A stretch of DNA of 63,320 nucleotides, counting the filler, from Globobulimina sp. (taxonomy: Eukaryota), in the NCBI GenBank assembly GCA_003354225.1. It is 56 parts of 56 records of this genome, joined end to end, with 100 filler letters (N's around TTAATTAATTAA, not from the genome) between each part and the next. Parts side by side here need not be neighbours in the genome. Positions count along the whole stretch, not along the records: positions 28,329 to 29,360 come from PIVH01025289.1; 55 more parts are not named here. One strand, written 5' to 3'. The notes beneath the pieces were generated by a model that saw only the letters and a list, made by a program, of their open reading frames with translations, was not told the DNA's origin and searched no databases. Positions 754 to 63,320 of this stretch are shown piece after piece (position 1 is the stretch's first letter; each line of letters starts with the position of its first letter). The translations under genes were made by a program, and so were the position numbers.

Positions 754-1034
754 TTGTATATATTTGAGTTGCTTGTTTTTTTTCGAAAATCTTTTTTTTT
801 GAGTTGCTTGTCTCTTTCTTTATTTTTATGTCTTTGGTACTGATAAACAATATCACTTTGTTGAGTGTGCCATATAGAGGCTATATTGGAATCGTAGCAT
901 GAATGGCTCAAAAACACAATAAAAGACCAATATGCTACAAATTGCATGGCCCATTTGTGAGGTGTAGAACAACGGGAATTATCCTGTGAACAAGTGTTAA
1001 TGTCTCTGTTTAAATTTTAACGATGATCAGATAT

Positions 1035-6347: not shown

Positions 6348-6801
6348 ATCAAAATACCATTACAATCATTCCCATACAATTCAATGGTTTGCCTTATAAA
6401 ATTTTTTGACATTCTAGGCACCATTAAAATTTTATTCACATTACATGCGGGCAAATGGGGATTTAGGAAATGAATATATGTATAATATATTCTATTTCCC
6501 TTTCTGTCTATTAATATTACCTGTTAATATTAGTACTTTTCCCCGTTTGTATATTCTGCTGTAATTGACCCAATTATAATATTAAATTAAATTATTATTT
6601 CTTATTCTTACTGCTTGCACCTTTTTATAAAAGAAAATTATAACAAGAAATTAAAACAAAAACATTAGAGATTATTAATAATGATATTAAACCAAAAGAT
6701 ANNNNNNNNNNNNNNNNNNNNNNNNNNNNNNNNNNNNNNNNNNNNTTAATTAATTAANNNNNNNNNNNNNNNNNNNNNNNNNNNNNNNNNNNNNNNNNNN
6801 N

Positions 6802-7833
6802 ACATTTACATAAATATACCGCTAACTTGGCTCCTTTCACGCGATTCCCAGTCGACGTACCAAATAAAGTGGTACTATTTGTCCGCGACGATCCGCGCAA
6901 AGCAATCTTTGTTTGCTCTTTTTGTTGCTCTTTCATTTCCACCTCGGACCTGCACGCATCAATTAAATAAATACGTGGGATCGATATCAATTTAGTATCG
7001 CATTGGAACAATGACCGAATGTCATTATAACTATATACTGCCCCGTCGCTACATATTATCCCCTTTTCCAAGCCATGAGCGCCAATGGTCACAAACAGCG
7101 AATCATAATAAATTGTACCGGTATCAAAATTAAATAACTTCTTCCTACATTGTCTCAAGAATTTCTCTACTTTTTTTTTGGGCATATACAACCCATACTT
7201 TTCCCCATGAGCTGAATCGATATTTGATACCAATGTGTATCCATATTGCTCCACCAACACCTCTGCATAATGTTGAATATCGCGTTCAACGCCAAGTAAA
7301 GTCTCAACTTTATATTGATTCGCGTCATATTCCTTAATCACCAACGATATAATCAACGCATCGCGTTTCACATTGACATTCTTAGCCTGCTCAATCTGTT
7401 TATATTCGCCGCAAAAGGAGCCTTTATTAAATTTCACAGTGCCTTCACGCATTGTTTCTTGAATATCGACAAGTTGCCTTGCTTTGAATTTCTGTTTCTT
7501 CACTTTTTTGTCTTTGGTCAACTTAAATGCTTCCGAGCGTATTTTCCCTTTGATTTTCTCCAATGTCCATTGTTGCTGCCTTTTCTGGGCATTATCTCCG
7601 TAACACAACGGCTGCCGTAACACGTTCACCACCGCTTTCATCAAAAAGCCGCCGTCGGAGTTATCGTACGAAATATAACCGACCGCGTTTGAATAAAAGC
7701 AAAACCAATCTGACATGGAATGGCTTGGCAGGGGAACGTTGCCAGTAACCTGCGAGTATGTGTCCATAAACATAATTTTGGGAATCTCTGGTAATTCATA
7801 CTCATCGCCAGTTGCTGAAAATATATCTTTAAT
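6802..7833 (-). CDS. Peptidase C14 (caspase-like) protein with tandem domains, partial at both ends
   Basis: Second domain has IGAHG and IPRIYLIDACRS. The upstream domain has the equivalent strand IPKIMFMDTYS and a p10-like segment (FYSNAVGYIS...GGFLMKAV). Confidence 0.8.
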
Positions 7834-9067: not shown

Positions 9068-9910
9068 ATGTGGAAGCATGCATGTGCCAAAATAGGATGG
9101 TCGGCAATGCACGGACACCTATATGCGGTGAGAGATTATTTATTAAGCAATAATATTATCATTAAAACACAGCAGGAAGACATGCAAAGACTACATGGAA
9201 TAATAAAACAAGAAAGAAAAGACAGGCCAACAAAAGGTAAGGATGCCTTAAAAGAGAAAGAATTGGAATTGATGATAAATGCAATAAAAAGTGATAAAAA
9301 CATGTCAAAGAAAGACAAATATGCATGGGAGGCAATATTGACATTGCTTTATTTTGGAATAAAGCGAATATCGGAATATGTACACAACACAGATCTATCA
9401 TTGAATTTATCTGTAAACAATTTAGAATTCGAATACGATTTAAGGAGCAATGAGTTCAACAAATCAAGCCATTGCATCCTAAACAGAAAAAGAGGGAAAA
9501 CATATCAATACGGAGGAGATTTATTTGCCGTATTTATTTGCACCTGCAAAGCATCAAAATTCTGCTTTTTATGTGCCGCAAAAAGATATTTAAACATAAG
9601 AAAAAAAGAAAAAAAAGGAAAAGACATTTCAGATGAATGCCTATTTGAATTGGACAACAAACAGATTTTAAACAAATATACAATGGGAAAGATGATAAAA
9701 AAACTGGCACAAGAAATAGGATTAAATCCAGACAATATTGCTGGACATAGTTGGAGAAAAGGAGGAGCACAGTGGGCAGTTAAACAAAATCTGCCAACAA
9801 CAACCATAATGAAACAAGCGGATTGGAAGTCATTCAAATCACTAAAAAGATATTGTGATAACATTGATCGATTGGACCAAGTTCAAATTTTAAAAAATAT
9901 TGTCAAGTAA
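9068..9910 (+). mobile_element. Tyrosine recombinase (DIRS-type), catalytic domain intact
   Basis: LLYFGIKRISEY (R), RGKTYQ (K), AGHSWRKGGA (HxxR), ADWKS (W) and KRY (Y). Confidence 0.9.
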
Positions 9911-12468: not shown

Positions 12469-13499
12469 CTCAATGTACTGCGATATGAATATTGGAATCA
12501 TGCCACTGCTAAGTTTGCAAAGAGTGGAGCAGCAATAAACCATATACACCATCACCTATACATGCAACGGCTGATTGAATTATGCAGAAATGTCAATCTA
12601 AACCAGAAGCAATTCTGGATGGTACTCTGTGGCGCGAACTATTATAACAACGATTCTCGCACTTTTAATTACATACACAAACAAATAAATATAAACACAA
12701 CCAAACATACACTTTATAATGACCTCATATCCCAAACCCACAGATGGCTACACAATGTCAAACAAATCAATGCCGGCAAAAGTTCCATCCGACAAATCCA
12801 ATGCAAGCACAACGCAGTACCTTCGAAAATGGTCATGTTTCACATAAGAAATGATACCCTGAATGAATGGCACCATTACCAACACAAACTAAATAGTACG
12901 GATCTAATCATAGCCACGGACTCCTCCCATGACCCACAGACCAACACCACCGGGATAGGCATATACATCCAAGATAATAATAAGATATATTGCTTCTCTC
13001 AGCCAATCGGCCAACAAACCAACCATTATGGCGAACTGTATGCCATCTTCAAATCCAAATTCCTAATAAATTACCACAATATAAATATAATAAATAGAAG
13101 AATCATCATATTCACTGACTCGCTCTTTAACTTCCTTCCATTAATCATAACCCCAAAAAGACATCGAAACAATCCAATATCGATCCTATTCAAAAACACT
13201 CAGAAATATATCAAAAATAACCAGATATTACTATGGAAGGTCAAATCGCATACCAAACCACAACAACAGCCTTTTAACCAGATAGCTGATATCCTAGCAG
13301 AAATTGGAAGACAGCACCCACGTAATTCCAGCCTAATCACCACCAACTATAACTCTATCCGGTATGCCAAATCCAAATCATTTTACTATAATTGGGGTAT
13401 CTATCCCCACCAACTTTATTCTCTCGCCGGGATGTTTAAGCAATCGGTGAGTATGGAGCCAGATTTAGACCCTGGCTGAATGTTGCTTCACTACTACTA
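12469..13499 (+). mobile_element. Non-LTR retrotransposon 3' end: ORF2 C-terminus with RNase H, 11-nt 3' UTR and (CTA)n tail
   Basis: RNase H motifs IATDSS, TNHYGELYAI, IFTDSL, WKVKSH and NQIADILA; stop at 13477-13479; CTACTACTA at 13491-13499. Confidence 0.85.
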
Positions 13500-14952: not shown

Positions 14953-15867
14953 GCCCTCTGCTTCAAAAGTTTTTTTCCATCCCATGATATCTCGCATGAA
15001 ATATGTTTGTCAGAATATTTTTTTATTATAGCCTACAAAATCAAATTGAAAATAACATAACGAACAAATAACATTGATGTGCGTGATAGTAAAATCCAGA
15101 ATATGATGCAGACCCCTCTGTAGTTTCCATTTTTATACATTTTAGAATTCAGAAAAAAGACAAGATCACTAAAAAACTGTACATTTTCTAAACAATTATG
15201 CGGATCAATTATGAATAATTGGCAATTAATTTTTCTATATTTATCAAAATCCGATACAATGTCTTCTATATAAACAAAGAAAAACATTATTAATAAAATA
15301 TTAAATGATGTATTCAAGACAGTTAATAATAACATTCGTGTTTGTTATTTATCCTCCTGGGAAGAAGCGTAACGTAGTAAGCTCTTCCATGGAGTTATGT
15401 CAAAATTATTGTGAACTAGCTACTTTTATTTGAGGACTTTTTTGTTCTTCAAATCGTCTAGATTTCGATTACTTTCCCTGTAGAATAGGGTTTTTGCTTT
15501 TAGTTCATTTCTTCAATGAACGCTTTGATAATTGAAGAAAAAAAAACTTTTGTCATTTAGAAACATAACATTTTGCTTTCATCATGGCACTCAGCGAATT
15601 ACAAATGCAATCTCAATCCAATGCACAGTCCACAAACTCCTGCCTAGCTCAAGTAGAGCACTGGATAGATATATCCAGAAGATTCAGGTTCAAATTATTT
15701 ATTATTATAGGTATTTATTATGGTTTCATGGACAGATTGGCGCAGTCTTTGCGATATTGCATCGTNNNNNNNNNNNNNNNNNNNNNNNNNNNNNNNNNNN
15801 NNNNNNNNNTTAATTAATTAANNNNNNNNNNNNNNNNNNNNNNNNNNNNNNNNNNNNNNNNNNNNTG

Positions 15868-28328: not shown

Positions 28329-28593
28329 AAAACCTTAATACCATAAAATCAATGCAGGTTGACACCCATCCGATATTTATGGACCATCGGCCTGTGGTAT
28401 TCTCTTTGAATAATACTAAATGCCGCACCAAAATAATTGATAAACATTACATTCTTCGCAATCACAAACCCAATGCCATCCTCACTGCAATTCACCATAA
28501 CATTCTGGAGAGCAAAATCAAACACATTGAGAAATTCACATCAAATGTTGAGCATTTCACTAATAAAACTCGCCTAGAATACATTTCCCACAT
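28329..28593 (+). pseudogene. LINE apurinic-endonuclease domain C-terminal fragment, interrupted by a TIR element
   Basis: MDHRPVVFSL resembles the SDHxP motif ending APE domains; the frame ends just inside the TAGGG element. Confidence 0.45.
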
Positions 28594-29360
28594 TAGGGGT
28601 GTCCGATAAGTACTGATTTTTTCAAAAACTTTTCAAACAGCCTTTTTTTTTTCAATCAGTTCGATAAGTGCCAAAGAAAAGGGAAGAATCATGCCGATGA
28701 TTATGCGAATGGAATGGATGGCACAAATGGATTATTTTTATGAAATATTGCATCCATCACATAACAAAAATGGTATCAAAAATGAGAAATTTTGGTACGT
28801 GGCATCCACTGATCCACAGCCACAGCACACCACAATCAAATAATTTGGAGGCAATTCATAGCCACGCAAAAACAAACGATATTTGTAGTGAGATAGATAT
28901 TTAATTTGTGGCAATCCACAGTCATGCATATATAGATTTAAGTGGTATTTAATTGGCAATCAACAGCCATAGCACACAAAAAAAAGAAAAAGAAAAAAAT
29001 TGATATTTGAATAAATAATTTGGGGCAATCCACAGCCACAAAAAACAAAAACAACACACATATAATCATATATTGATTTATATAAATATTATTACATATA
29101 TTGGTGTGCCATCACACAAAGCACCAATACTATCCATTTTGTTGTGATGGTGCTTAAGGAGAGCATATACTATTTTAATTGGGTTCAAATCCCAAACATC
29201 ACATTTTATTATTTTTTCTGAAATAGGGTCAATGTTTTGTTTGTTTTGTGTGTGGATGTTTTAAAGTCATTCTTGTTAAGATTCTATAATATAAAAAAAA
29301 TGAAAATACTTATCGAACTGATTGCATTTTTGAGAGCTGTTTGATAAGTTTTTGAAAAAA
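28594..29360. mobile_element. Non-autonomous TIR element (MITE; TAGGG terminus), right end cut by the contig end
   Basis: 28617-28669 is an imperfect reverse complement of 29308-29360. Internal ATCCACAG repeats. Related termini at 51135 and 62775. Confidence 0.75.
29143..29207 (+). ncRNA. tRNA-like structure lacking the anticodon arm (copy 1)
   Basis: Acceptor TGTGATG/CATCACA, D-arm GCTT-AAGGA-GAGC, 14-nt linker, T-arm TTGGG-TTCAAAT-CCCAA, then TTTT. Confidence 0.6.
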
Positions 29361-29460
29361 NNNNNNNNNNNNNNNNNNNNNNNNNNNNNNNNNNNNNNNN
29401 NNNNTTAATTAATTAANNNNNNNNNNNNNNNNNNNNNNNNNNNNNNNNNNNNNNNNNNNN

Positions 29461-50866: not shown

Positions 50867-51277
50867 CANNNNNNNNNNNNNNNNNNNNNNNNNNNNNNNN
50901 NNNNNNNNNNNNTTAATTAATTAANNNNNNNNNNNNNNNNNNNNNNNNNNNNNNNNNNNNNNNNNNNNTTCATTTTGGTTCATTATTATTATTATTATTA
51001 TTGAATTCCAGATTGGACCAATTGACCACCATTTTCTATAAATTGTAATTCGATTCTGTCGAGAACAAATTGCTATTCTTCCTAATCCTACGCCATGCAA
51101 ATAACAAAAATATTTATTCAGACTGCATGTTTAATAGGGCTTTCCGATATGTACTGCAAATGTCTTGCTGTTTGAAAAGTTTTTTCTTTTTTTCATGATC
51201 ATATCGAACACCTCGGCAAACGCTATTTATGTGCCACCAAAACATATTGGTTTTGTTGGTGATTTGCTGGTGCGTAA

Positions 51278-51341
51278 ATCCACGTAGCTCAATCGGTAGA
51301 GCATGTAGGGAATCCAGGTTCAAATCCTGGCGTGGTATTTT
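51278..51341 (+). ncRNA. tRNA-like structure lacking the anticodon arm (copy 2)
   Basis: CCACG-TA-GCTC-AATCGGTA-GAGC, 11-nt linker, CCAGG-TTCAAAT-CCTGG-CGTGG, then TATTTT; near-consensus A and B boxes. Confidence 0.7.
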
Positions 51342-52101
51342 GGCGGAGATGACGCAATGGTTCCATCACATGGTCTTATACACAGTCTAATCATTGGCGA
51401 TCTGTTATAATGTTATTAACGATCGATATGGAGCTTGTTTATAATGAATGGGTCAGAACAAAAAATTGCGAATTGGTATTTTCATTATAATCAAGCCACA
51501 TGGCCTTTATGTTATGGATATCATATTTTGGAATTTTGAAAAAGAAACGTTGTTCATATGGACACGTTTCAAAGGGGACATTATGGCAACGCATCATAGG
51601 ACGGATATTTGTATAAAGAAACAGAAACAGTGCGATATTTGCGAGATGAATGAATAATATGGACTGGGAATAAAACGAATAGATAGATACACATATAAAG
51701 TGGATAGAAATGGTATTATACGAGTGATCGTTGTTTTACTTTTTGAGTGTTATATTTCATCCTTGCACAAAGAACATAATTATGTATCCTTGCACAAAGA
51801 ACATAATACTTATTTACTAAAATTAAATTAATTTACAATTGAAGTTTCCTGTCATGCAGCCATTGTTTATCCACAACTTGTAATATTAAAGCAGATGGAT
51901 ATTGTCACAACACAAAAACACAAAAATCATAATCACAACAACCAAATATAAACTCATACCATCCTGCACAAGCATTGGCGTTCCAGCCGTAAAATACAAC
52001 NNNNNNNNNNNNNNNNNNNNNNNNNNNNNNNNNNNNNNNNNNNNTTAATTAATTAANNNNNNNNNNNNNNNNNNNNNNNNNNNNNNNNNNNNNNNNNNNN
52101 T

Positions 52102-52998: not shown

Positions 52999-53232
52999 TT
53001 GAGTTATATAAGTGTATACTGTTTATATAACTGTAAACCATTTCGCTTTAAACGTTTTTTTGTTGAAGTTGAGTTTTAAAAATCCTAGCTTTTCGAAAAT
53101 AGTAATTGTGCAGAAAATGGAAGTTGCAACAGNNNNNNNNNNNNNNNNNNNNNNNNNNNNNNNNNNNNNNNNNNNNTTAATTAATTAANNNNNNNNNNNN
53201 NNNNNNNNNNNNNNNNNNNNNNNNNNNNNNNN

Positions 53233-54264
53233 GTCAATATTCTCATGCCTAACCCTTTCACTTTCATTTTGATTCGTATTCTCAATCTCAACCCGGACGA
53301 TCCCACTGATGCCGCGACCGCCATTTACCTGATTTACCGCTATATTATTTGCATGATCATATTCTTGGCGTGCTTTATAACCAAACTGTTCTGGTTGTTG
53401 TTGTTGTTGTACATGTTGATTCTGATTATTCTGATTCCTATGTCCATTTTGATTCTGAATATTCTGATTAGCATTCCTCAAAACTGGCTGGTCCACAAGC
53501 TCTGGGACATAGGCACCCAGACGAGTTAAACCGGCATCTTTTCTAAACTTCCGATCCGAGGTCAGATCACTCGGCAAATTATCTAATATAAAATCATACA
53601 TTCTTCCTTTGATCATAGTGGAATGAAACTTCATTTTGTCCGGTTTGTTGCTCATATAATGAGGATATATGCGATGTCCATATTGATAAATTTCATTATT
53701 CATTGGAATGCCATTATCTTTCGGAAATATTGCGGCTTTCCCCGTTTTGGGGAAATCCAATGCAAAGGAATGGTATTTGGCAATTTCTAAACAATCCTTG
53801 TGTCCGATACCTTGTACGTTATGCTCACTGTACGCCTCATGCAACTCTGACAATTCTGCAGTATTTTCATGCAACGCATACTCTAAAAAATAATCCACGA
53901 TCGTATAATCATCGATGTATTCAGGCAACGATAACTGACCCTGTTCGTCAAATTTCTGCACTTTAATATGATATTTATATTCCATATCATAGTCGTTGTT
54001 TGGTAACAAATCCTTTTGGGTCACCACCAGAAACTCATCGCCATCCAAATCAGCGCCACTCATTGCAAAGACCGGCGAGGTTTTACAGCTGGTTTGCGTC
54101 GAAAACAGTAAACATTCACCGTCACACAAATTATTTAATAACTCACTATTGACTCCGGTAAATAACTTATAACCTCGGGGATGAAGGCAGGGGTTTTTCA
54201 ATAAGCCGCATTGGCCTTCGTATACCAGATATTTTGGGCGCGGTGTTTTACAAAATTGATTCGA
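53233..54264 (-). CDS. Cellular (RNAi-type) RNA-dependent RNA polymerase, catalytic region
   Basis: KNPCLHP, SGADLDGDEF, ALDFPKTG, YPHYM and S..IKGRMYD. Confidence 0.95.
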
Positions 54265-62143: not shown

Positions 62144-62871
62144 TATATTAATTATAACGAAAAGCATTTTTTAAAATATTAATTCATTNNNNNNNNNNNN
62201 NNNNNNNNNNNNNNNNNNNNNNNNNNNNNNNNTTAATTAATTAANNNNNNNNNNNNNNNNNNNNNNNNNNNNNNNNNNNNNNNNNNNNATTGTGTTTTAA
62301 TTTGAATTTGTAAAAATCAGAACAAGTCAGATTAACGTTTTATGATTGGCCATTGTCGTTTGGTTGGCTTATCATTATCATTCGCAACTGTTACATGAAT
62401 CCCGCACTGCGCGTTGATACTGTAGAATGGACATGGAATGAACATGAATGCAATTAAGTGTTTCTGTGCTGTATGTAAATGATCCAAAGAATGATCCAAA
62501 TGTATGATCCACTTCCTGTAAATTGCAAGTTTTCTGAATTATTATTTGGTGCATGCAGCTGTCGTTCGAGCAAAGTGTAAAGTAACCTATATAACAGAAC
62601 ATATATTATATATGATTACAGGTCCACCATTTCTTTAATATATTATCTCAAATAATATATATATATACATTATTCGGAACACCACTGTACATATATGATC
62701 CAATGTGATTCGAACATTTTTTGCCTTCACTCCACTAAACTAAATGTTTCACATACTATATTGGCTTAGATTATTAGGGCTTTCCGATAAATACTTATCG
62801 AACGTACACGAAAAATCAGTACTTTCTGTTCAATGAATAGTTCAAAACAAATAAATGTATCAACAAAAATA

Positions 62872-63085
62872 TAGTAGTAGTGGGGGAACATTCAGCCAGG
62901 ATCTAAGTCTGGCTCCATGCTCACCGATTGCTTAAATATCCCGTTGCGGGTATATATAAACTGAAAACATTTTTGAACAGCAGAAATTTGTGCGCGTTGT
63001 TCATTTCCATGGTGCGCGTTGTAATTTCGACGGGTGGGAGACGAATTTTGATGATTTGTGTGCTGGGATAATTCGTTTTCGTGTG
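62872..63085 (-). mobile_element. 5'-truncated LINE copy related to 12469..13499
   Basis: Ends GIFKQSVSMEPDLDPG*, then an 11-nt UTR and (CTA)3; colinear NSS-x4-NYN upstream. Confidence 0.8.
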
Positions 63086-63320
63086 TGTGTGTTGTATGAA
63101 ACAATTTACTGATAAAAATATAACGCGAACACATTGTCTAAAATAGATAACGCACACATTGTCTAAAATAAATACAAAAAAAAGGTTTGTTGTTGCAATT
63201 GCGATGGAACCTATGGTCCAATTTTAATTACGTATTAAATTACCTTCATTGTACATGTTTGTTTGTAGTTTCAAATGCCAAATATCATCGAACCCAAAAC
63301 TTTTTTGAAGTGATCTAGTC

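Follow-up and report, generated by a model that had tools for sequence, protein, structure and literature searches.

A tRNA-derived module in the ends of inverted-repeat elements, apparently armless by deletion and putatively an internal Pol III promoter unit

SINEs, mobile elements that spread by way of RNA, are typified by Pol III modules of tRNA origin. In these elements the tRNA part is located at the 5' end, inverted repeats are absent and spreading occurs by retroposition (PMC3845634, PMC2817418); the unit has a simple-repeat or LINE-like tail. Two further RNAs, mascRNA and menRNA, are about 58 nt long and tRNA-shaped with a reduced anticodon region, and are cut by RNase P and RNase Z, which recognise them as tRNAs, from MALAT1 and MEN-beta (bioRxiv 10.64898/2026.01.19.700226, PMC11693755). 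They are single-copy parts of vertebrate Pol II lncRNAs and are not known to be transposon-borne. In plant mitochondria, tRNA-like structures called t-elements mark the ends of mRNAs for cutting by RNase Z and/or RNase P (PMC1920247). Dada DNA transposons insert into tRNA and snRNA genes and have no TIRs (PMC3706591); the insertion is at a fixed site, so that gene halves flank the element.

Compared with a SINE head, the module studied here is similar in being tRNA-derived and non-decoding, in having A and B boxes, in reaching a high copy number by means of a mobile element and in the decay of its anticodon region. It differs in being internal, 117-174 nt inside inverted termini (as in el1, an element described below, and in the metagenome locus L005) and, in L005, present at both ends; the internal position and the inverted termini together rule out a tRNA-derived SINE. 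With mascRNA and menRNA it shares the tRNA shape with a reduced anticodon region, and its processing is predicted. The t-elements differ from it in being organellar, immobile and without Pol III boxes. A DNA transposon closely tied to tRNA genes is also found in Dada (PMC3706591), but that identity is rejected, as the module here is whole and internal and the sequences beyond TAGGG show no relationship from one copy to the next. In its presumed action the module resembles a SINE head or a t-element/mascRNA mimic, yet belongs to neither class.

The hAT superfamily is characterised by an 8-bp target-site duplication and, in autonomous copies, by a hAT transposase. Our elements share just about 200-300 bp per end and have unrelated interiors, and this end-only similarity, together with short subterminal repeats of the TATCGAA type, makes them resemble Ds-like non-autonomous hAT elements. 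The terminus TAGGG fits the YARNG rule of hAT, which makes this superfamily a candidate. In the literature searched, no description was found of a hAT family whose ends carry tRNA-like modules. For transposon inverted-repeat ends in general, the full texts searched, a set outside which Repbase and the subscription journals lie, gave no description of such modules.

Modules and termini of the window

The window, i.e. the whole stretch of DNA that was analysed, has a length of 63,320 nt and consists of 56 separate contig stretches of 1032-1034 bases each, joined by N44-TTAATTAATTAA-N44 linkers. It is AT-rich (GC about 31%) and eukaryote-like, and comes from a fragmented assembly. Copy 1, copy 2 and the third terminus are three independent samples of the genome, since each is from its own contig, Table 1. 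In a blastn comparison among these three contigs no similarity was found outside the features described here.

Table 1. Positions of the features in the window.
Feature	Position	Strand	Description and evidence
Contig of copy 1	28329-29360
Contig of copy 2	50969-52000
Contig of the third terminus	62289-63320
el1, non-autonomous inverted-repeat element	28594..29360	+	left terminus 28594-28614; right terminus missing
el1 inverted repeat	28617-41/29336-60		25-nt arms, 96% complementary
el1 inner repeat	28653-69/29308-24		17-nt arms, 100% complementary
Putative remnant of a decayed type-B module (weak)	28690..28740	+	pairwise alignment of the left ends of el1 and L005
Copy 1, diverged tRNA-like module	29143..29207	+	direct reading, RNA fold, R2 28.4 bits
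Copy 1 acceptor stem	29143-29149/29197-29203		TGTGATG/CATCACA, 7/7 paired
Copy 1 D arm	29152-64		stem GCTT 29152-55/GAGC 29161-64, loop AAGGA
Copy 1 linker between D and T arms	29165-29178		14 nt
Copy 1 T arm	29179-95		stem TTGGG 29179-83/CCCAA 29191-95, loop TTCAAAT, GGTTCAAATCC box present
Copy 1 additional A	29196		bulge between T stem and acceptor
Copy 1 3' T run	29204-07		TTTT
el2 left terminus TAGGGCTTTCCGATATGTACT	51135..51155	+	exact pattern match; boundary of repeated DNA
Type-A leader, including a small hairpin	51236..51277	+	85-88% identity across 4 copies
Copy 2, a type-A tRNA-like module minus 8 nt	51278..51337	+	Rfam tRNA 36.4 bits, R2 51.5 bits
Third module, type B	15638..15695	+	R1 33.2 bits, R2 34.3 bits (R2 span 15631-15752)
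el3, third exact terminus	62775..62795	+	pattern match

The original prediction described copy 1 as a tRNA-like RNA without an anticodon arm inside an inverted-repeat element. All the parts it named (7-bp acceptor, D arm, T arm, box, T run and a 14-nt gap) are found, and the inverted repeat of el1 is real, with the right terminus cut off by the contig end at 29360. Folded alone, the RNA of copy 1 takes a three-arm shape with an MFE of -18.3 kcal/mol (z -3.2, 2/200 shuffles equal). The D arm is type-B-like, see below, and the acceptor and T stems are its own. Against the Rfam tRNA model copy 1 is unscored even at E<=10.

A second armless module had been claimed at 51278, downstream of a terminus of the same family, and this holds as well. 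Copy 2 scores above the gathering threshold of the Rfam tRNA model (RF00005), which is 29 bits, and starts 143 nt inside the el2 terminus, facing inward. Only five clean pairs (CCACG/CGTGG) are left in its acceptor, with two positions unpaired, and in the Rfam alignment 5 nt stand where the 17-nt anticodon arm belongs. The exact sequence GGTTCRANTCC has two matches in the window, one inside copy 1 and one inside copy 2. ARAGORN, run on the whole window, calls no tRNA genes.

The evidence comprises three modules of the window and six from one metagenome set. We built a covariance model, R2, from five complete metagenome modules only, i.e. with no window copy in the training, and used it in an unfiltered search of the whole window. 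Three matches result, namely copy 2 with 51.5 bits (E 8e-12), a further module at 15638 with 34.3 bits (E 5e-7) and copy 1 with 28.4 bits (E 2.4e-5); the E-values are rough due to a shortened calibration. The next-best match has 12.2 bits and an E-value of 0.79. This gap, and the occurrence of the module in five independent metagenome contigs and in the runs of two studies, makes it extremely improbable that we are dealing with a chance resemblance or an assembly artefact, as could be suspected from contigs of about 1 kb, a fragmented assembly and the absence of the copy 2 junction among the run-contig pieces listed. Copy 1 is a more diverged member of the family that has lost most of the arm.

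The module at 15638 retains the acceptor 5' strand, the D arm, a CTGGAT..ATCCAG hairpin, the T stem 5' strand and the T loop; its 3' portion is disrupted, with the break inside the T arm. A TAGGG located 156 nt upstream was considered as its terminus and rejected (score 34 against 25 +/- 4 for shuffles, maximum 43).

Exact matches to the terminus pattern are found at 28594, 51135 and 62775, i.e. three exact termini among 56 random 1-kb contigs, and they can be aligned over about 21 nt. A relaxed search of the window, allowing up to 5 substitutions, gives no further termini. In the contig of the third terminus no tRNA-like module was found by the R1 and R2 searches.

An element family with modules in its ends

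The 21-nt terminus pattern has eight matches in metagenome contigs (L001-L008), whereas searches of 596 Gb of prokaryote genomes and of viral contigs gave no match. Five of the eight (L001, L002, L004, L005 and L006) have one accession prefix, a GC of 0.31-0.34 and subterminal sequence in common with the window elements. The other three, with a GC of 0.45-0.57 and no common subterminal sequence, are chance matches and were discarded. Over the family the terminus reads TAGGG[C/G]T[G/T]TCCGATA..TACT. L002 is uninformative about the module because its contig stops 117 nt inside the terminus. Near the other termini, the Rfam tRNA model finds a match of 53.7 bits in L001, two in L006 (48.0 and 28.5 bits) and one of 30.2 bits in L005.

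These loci follow a common plan, in which a subterminal stretch of about 100 nt with motifs of the TATCGAA type separates the terminus from an inward-reading tRNA-like module. Counted from base 1 of the terminus, the acceptor starts at a distance of 143 nt in el2, 149 in L006, 153 in L004, 161 in L001 and 174 at the right end of L005; the left end of L005, where the locus starts at terminus base 17, would have about 117, giving the overall range mentioned above. L005 is about 1.5 kb long and covered at both ends, and a module is present at each, in inverted orientation (second end at 1262-1521). In L006 one module type is at the left end and the other type, facing back, is 167 nt before the contig end. 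In L004 the module breaks off behind the D arm.

The proposed association with the TAGGG..CCGATA family is supported. Seven ends comprise a terminus together with 180 nt or more of inside sequence. In five of them the module is in place, inward and 143-174 nt from the terminus; el1 has a remnant only and el3 none. The left end of el1 is homologous to the left end of L005 (pairwise alignment score 89 against 27.5 +/- 4.9 for shuffles), and the same alignment weakly suggests a module remnant about 100-150 nt inside the el1 terminus, in which a GGAT-like run would be retained and the D and T arms gone. Copy 1 itself is an exception to the position rule, with 549 nt between it and the left terminus of el1; it faces the right end, whose terminus would be about 180 nt away. 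Its flanks compared with the leader and trailer of the type-A modules score 58, against 35.6 +/- 7.4 (maximum 61) for shuffles; as this resemblance is suggestive but within the range of the shuffles, copy 1 was assigned neither to type A nor to type B.

Contigs of four public runs (X1-X4, from two studies; the kind of contig is not on record) were aligned to 50969-52000. In X1 the left flank and the interior of el2 have a summed depth of about 5-17, and from 51133 onward the depth is 309-1094. The run contigs that match from 51131-51135 on have several different sequences before this boundary. A depth jump combined with differing flanks is typical of repeated DNA that begins here and has inserted in many places, which shows the TAGGG..CCGATA terminus to be the genuine end of a mobile element present in many copies. 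In one X1 contig the left flank is matched as far as 51135, beyond which the sequence is unrelated, and in an X2 contig of the same sample flank and terminus are joined, a contrast that no more than hints at an insertion polymorphism. A Tc1/mariner-like arrangement, in which 'TA' is the duplication and the element starts with GGG, was considered and set aside; the X1 contig just mentioned does not retain the 'TA', which is only a hint, as this contig may not be an empty site.

Only short ORFs are present in the el2 contig and in L001, the only relative listed for this comparison, and no transposase was found among 25 ORFs of at least 200 aa. The elements are non-autonomous inverted-repeat elements (MITE-like), with inverted termini, no coding capacity, high copy number and varied flanks.

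The well-kept modules are 67-71 nt long, with canonical A and B boxes, a 6-7-bp acceptor, a normal T arm and a stunted anticodon arm, and they come in two types. In type A (L001, L006, L004 and el2) the acceptor has 7 bp, the D and T arms are normal, the D loop contains GG, and only CTG-TTTTAYG-CAG lies between the two arms. The type-A module is flanked by conserved sequence on both sides, a leader of about 40 nt that includes the small hairpin of Table 1 and a trailer. Type B (twice in L005, once in L006 and at 15638 in the window) has a 5-nt D loop and, in the position of the anticodon arm, a palindromic CTGGAT..ATCCAG hairpin with (GGAT)n; this microsatellite is not of equal length even at the two ends of L005. 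One terminus subtype is combined with type A in el2 and with type B at the right end of L005, in the same place and orientation. An idea that the module marks a primer-binding site was dropped, as the TGG/CCA complement is absent beside it.

The anticodon arm

A standard tRNA has 23 nt between the D and T arms, and its anticodon arm consists of a 5-bp stem and a 7-nt loop. The linker between these arms is 14 nt in copy 1 and 11 nt in copy 2, and even the best relatives have an anticodon stem of 3-4 bp. In type A, the mini anticodon arm consists of this stem and a UUA-containing loop of 5-7 nt, within an RNA of 69 nt. Folded alone, type A forms a cloverleaf in which the stem has 4 bp and the loop 5 nt (z -3.5 and -3.2).

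The modules of L001 and L006, the closest relatives of copy 2, match it with an identity of 90-91% outside one gap. Its linker, counting position 26, equals the 19-nt segment of these two modules minus 8 nt, with two transitions in addition. On this alignment copy 2 is a type-A module with an 8-nt deletion in the mini anticodon arm. Among the pieces listed, run contigs of the same organism have 8 and 10 extra letters across the copy 2 module, and in at least two X1 contigs a remnant of the arm is located immediately before 51303. The exact copy 2 junction, 51290-51303, is found in none of the pieces listed. A more drastic variant joins 51290 to 51776, skipping 485 bases, and is therefore without the 3' two-thirds of the module; X1 and X2 contain it, and a loose end in X3 matches it. 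The half of copy 2 that contains the T arm (51284-51353) is also repeated, with a depth of 203-417 in X1. In X3 there is no cover over 51319-51353, to which we give no weight as evidence.

The mini arm of the relatives, the 8-nt deletion in copy 2, the longer forms in the same organism and the hairpin of type B together argue that the arm was lost independently in the two window copies. Its absence there is the result of later deletions and not a conserved design. The original prediction had proposed a non-decoding tRNA mimic spread by DNA transposons and defined by the conserved lack of this arm. The regular presence of the module in the TIR family stands; the armless design does not, because the relatives carry the arm, and independent deletion was among the outcomes that the prediction itself had set against it. 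Both window copies do take the three-arm fold, and their stems differ and still pair, as expected of a purpose-built mimic. However, the best-kept relatives possess the arm that copy 2 lacks by 8 nt, the same-organism contigs have the longer form and the two window linkers are unlike each other, so that this proposal is largely refuted and now quite improbable.

ARAGORN calls the modules of L001 and L006 'tRNA-Stop (tta)', and with their Rfam scores of 53.7 and 48 bits they could be taken for working suppressor tRNAs with the anticodon UUA, carried on a transposon and dead in the window copies. Against this, the anticodon stem has only 3-4 bp and the loop 5-7 nt in these 69-nt RNAs, the loop varies between copies and type B has no anticodon loop. 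A tRNA with this anticodon would also be a suppressor of the main stop codon here, as 11 of the 13 long ORFs in the window with a genomic stop end in TAA. We consider a working suppressor very improbable, and neither module type can decode.

Conservation and possible role of the module

That the stems differ between copies and yet pair had been noticed for copies 1 and 2, and it extends to the family. In an alignment of seven modules 92.9% of the cells are paired, and in 9 of the 16 pairs both partners have changed. These values are never attained in 500 shuffles, and sliding the partners lowers the pairing to 34-43%. The D-arm and T-loop columns, which contain the A and B boxes, are invariant in all seven aligned modules. 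A coaxial helix of acceptor and T arm is predicted in 6/6 folded modules, in copy 1 with the bulged A 29196. Between L001 and L006 the identity is 100% in the terminus, 58% in the spacer, 86% in the leader, 96% in the module, 93% in the trailer and 44% beyond. In the four copies used for the leader comparison of Table 1, the subterminal spacer is 58-69% identical in five of six pairs, the exception being L006/L004 with 87%.

Fixed A and B boxes, covarying acceptor and T stems and a dispensable anticodon arm are together the pattern expected of a unit that is transcribed by Pol III and processed by RNase P and RNase Z. We therefore favour, with some but far from full confidence, a tRNA-derived module that resides in the TIR ends, has become armless by deletion and acts as a putative internal Pol III promoter unit. 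A Pol III promoter and an RNase P/Z signal had both been put forward in the original prediction, and both are plausible roles. Such a module would be a TFIIIC-binding tDNA retained by the master copies of the element. Pol III would transcribe it into a short, non-decoding RNA, which might then be trimmed by RNase P and RNase Z and perhaps be a substrate of the CCA-adding enzyme. These three enzymes read the acceptor/T-arm helix, and RNase P and RNase Z need nothing beyond it, so the RNA could be trimmed by RNase P and RNase Z despite the missing arm. The benefit would probably lie at the element ends, either as open, TFIIIC-marked chromatin or through the cutting of transcripts that enter from the flanks.

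Several observations run counter to this reading. Many copies are broken (copy 2, L004, the 51290-51776 form, 15638 and the el1 remnant), and el3 has no module. A consistent terminator is absent, as the T runs that follow the modules are irregular and located from +1 to about +95; in the deleted copies the spacing of the A and B boxes is also shorter. The covariation comes from seven related sequences and could stem from different source tRNAs. The A- and B-box columns are positions conserved in all tRNAs, so their invariance concerns universal tRNA positions. The high identity of the module could reflect recombination between elements instead of selection, and copy 1 is off the position rule.

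The broken copies, the end without a module and the irregular terminator would all be natural if the module were a neutral passenger, i.e. a captured tRNA gene or pseudogene that is copied with the ends, decays freely and has no role. What it fits less well is that the spacer between them and the terminus is much less conserved than module and leader (58% against 96% for the module), that one terminus subtype pairs with either type in the same place and orientation, and that the acceptor and T stems stay paired through double changes. We regard a passenger as a strong rival and a real possibility, though on balance not the probable one.

The preserved acceptor/T-arm helix and the dispensable anticodon arm would equally suit a tRNA-shaped RNase P/Z site that is not a gene of its own and cuts Pol II transcripts running into the element. 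Because the modules at both ends face inward, a transcript entering from either flank meets a module in sense orientation. There are precedents for such RNA punctuation in the t-elements (PMC1920247) and in mascRNA. This explanation is compatible with the Pol III reading rather than exclusive of it, and it leaves the invariance of the A- and B-box letters, which goes beyond pairing, without a cause; taken by itself it is unlikely. We rank the Pol III/TFIIIC unit first, with the processing signal as a close variant of it and the neutral passenger as its strongest competitor.

A more far-reaching version of the Pol III reading, which we offer as speculation and consider doubtful, is that paired inward tRNA-like Pol III units are a working part of the life cycle of a cut-and-paste transposon, as interchangeable, selected cassettes. 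In one option, the recruitment of TFIIIC would keep the ends open and insulated; in the other, RNase P and RNase Z would cut run-in transcripts before the inverted ends can form silencing dsRNA. Types A and B would then be swappable, the stems free to covary and the anticodon arm dispensable.

If the module is a passenger only, we are looking at an ordinary tRNA pseudogene family. A fixed, oriented tRNA module at both ends of a TIR DNA transposon family would, on the other hand, be unusual. For annotation, tRNA scans in this organism will catch many transposon-borne pseudo-tRNAs, including apparent 'suppressor' tRNAs. The family would also lend itself well to the question of whether TFIIIC binding and cutting by RNase P and RNase Z are used by DNA transposons in order to spread or to escape silencing.

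Left junction and breakpoints of the second element

We compared the contig carrying the second element (window 50969-52000) with contigs from four public sequencing runs, X1 to X4. One X1 contig matches the left flank up to the terminus at 51135 and then continues into unrelated sequence, while an X2 contig from the same sample spans both flank and terminus. From this comparison of contigs in one sample, the left junction may be an insertion polymorphism, which would imply recent mobility.

In X1 and X2 contigs a stretch of 485 bases (51291-51775) is absent and replaced by a single T. The skipped stretch begins within the D loop of the tRNA-like module (copy 2), and a loose end at 51290 in an X3 contig matches this skip. 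The metagenome locus L004, of the same TAGGG transposon family, has a break close to the 51290 breakpoint but at a different point. By these contig alignments, the tRNA-like module seems to be a recurrent breakpoint.

Hairpins and repeats of the elements

About 30 nt 5' of every type-A module (the type whose well-kept copies have a mini anticodon arm; window, L001, L004, L006) lies a small AT-rich hairpin of the CAACAAAA..TTTTGTTG type. In the window copy the pairing seems to have been kept through changes on both strands (CACCAA..TTGGTG). In type B, the module contains a hairpin with a GGAT microsatellite; L005 carries both ends of one element, and there the microsatellite is two units longer on the right than on the left.

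The first element contains four to five copies of a subrepeat of ~25-40 nt (GGCAATCCACAGCCA type) between its left end region and copy 1. About 95 nt inward of the third terminus (62775) there is one copy of a 72-nt repeat, with the other on the opposite strand at 90% identity. Within the repeat, a GCCAGG..TCTGGC hairpin occupies the same place as the tRNA-like module in other elements; neither repeat copy has tRNA likeness by Rfam or by our covariance models R1 and R2, the latter built from metagenome copies only.

Features of the window and of the metagenome loci
Feature	Sequence	Position
Type-A upstream hairpin	window	51245-51272
Type-A upstream hairpin	L001	~893-920 (-)
Type-A upstream hairpin	L004	
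Type-A upstream hairpin	L006	~1606-1632
Type-B module, left	L005	102-172
Type-B module, right	L005	1262-1351
Subrepeats, first element	window	28800-29060
72-nt repeat	window	62872-62943; 13428-13499
Phage_integrase ORF	window	9068-9910
RNase H ORF	window	12562-13479
RNA-dependent RNA polymerase ORF	window	53185-54201
Caspase ORF	window	6754-7773
Linker (N44-TTAATTAATTAA-N44), examples	window	29361-29460; 52001-52100

Composition of the window and possible other mobile elements

The window (1-63320) is made up of 56 contigs of 1032-1034 bases each; because these are separate contigs joined by linkers, adjacent features are not genome neighbours. One contig (23797-24829) consists from end to end of densely packed repeats, both direct and inverted, at 77-91% identity. 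No TAGGG family transposase was seen among the 25 window ORFs of 200 aa or more. Four domains were found in window ORFs (see table), and the Phage_integrase and RNase H ORFs suggest, by their domains, other mobile-element families.

Annotation as suppressor tRNA

ARAGORN labels type-A modules as "tRNA-Stop, anticodon tta" (L001 787-855, L006 1650-1718). In this organism, an annotated genome would list transposon-borne pseudo-suppressor tRNAs.
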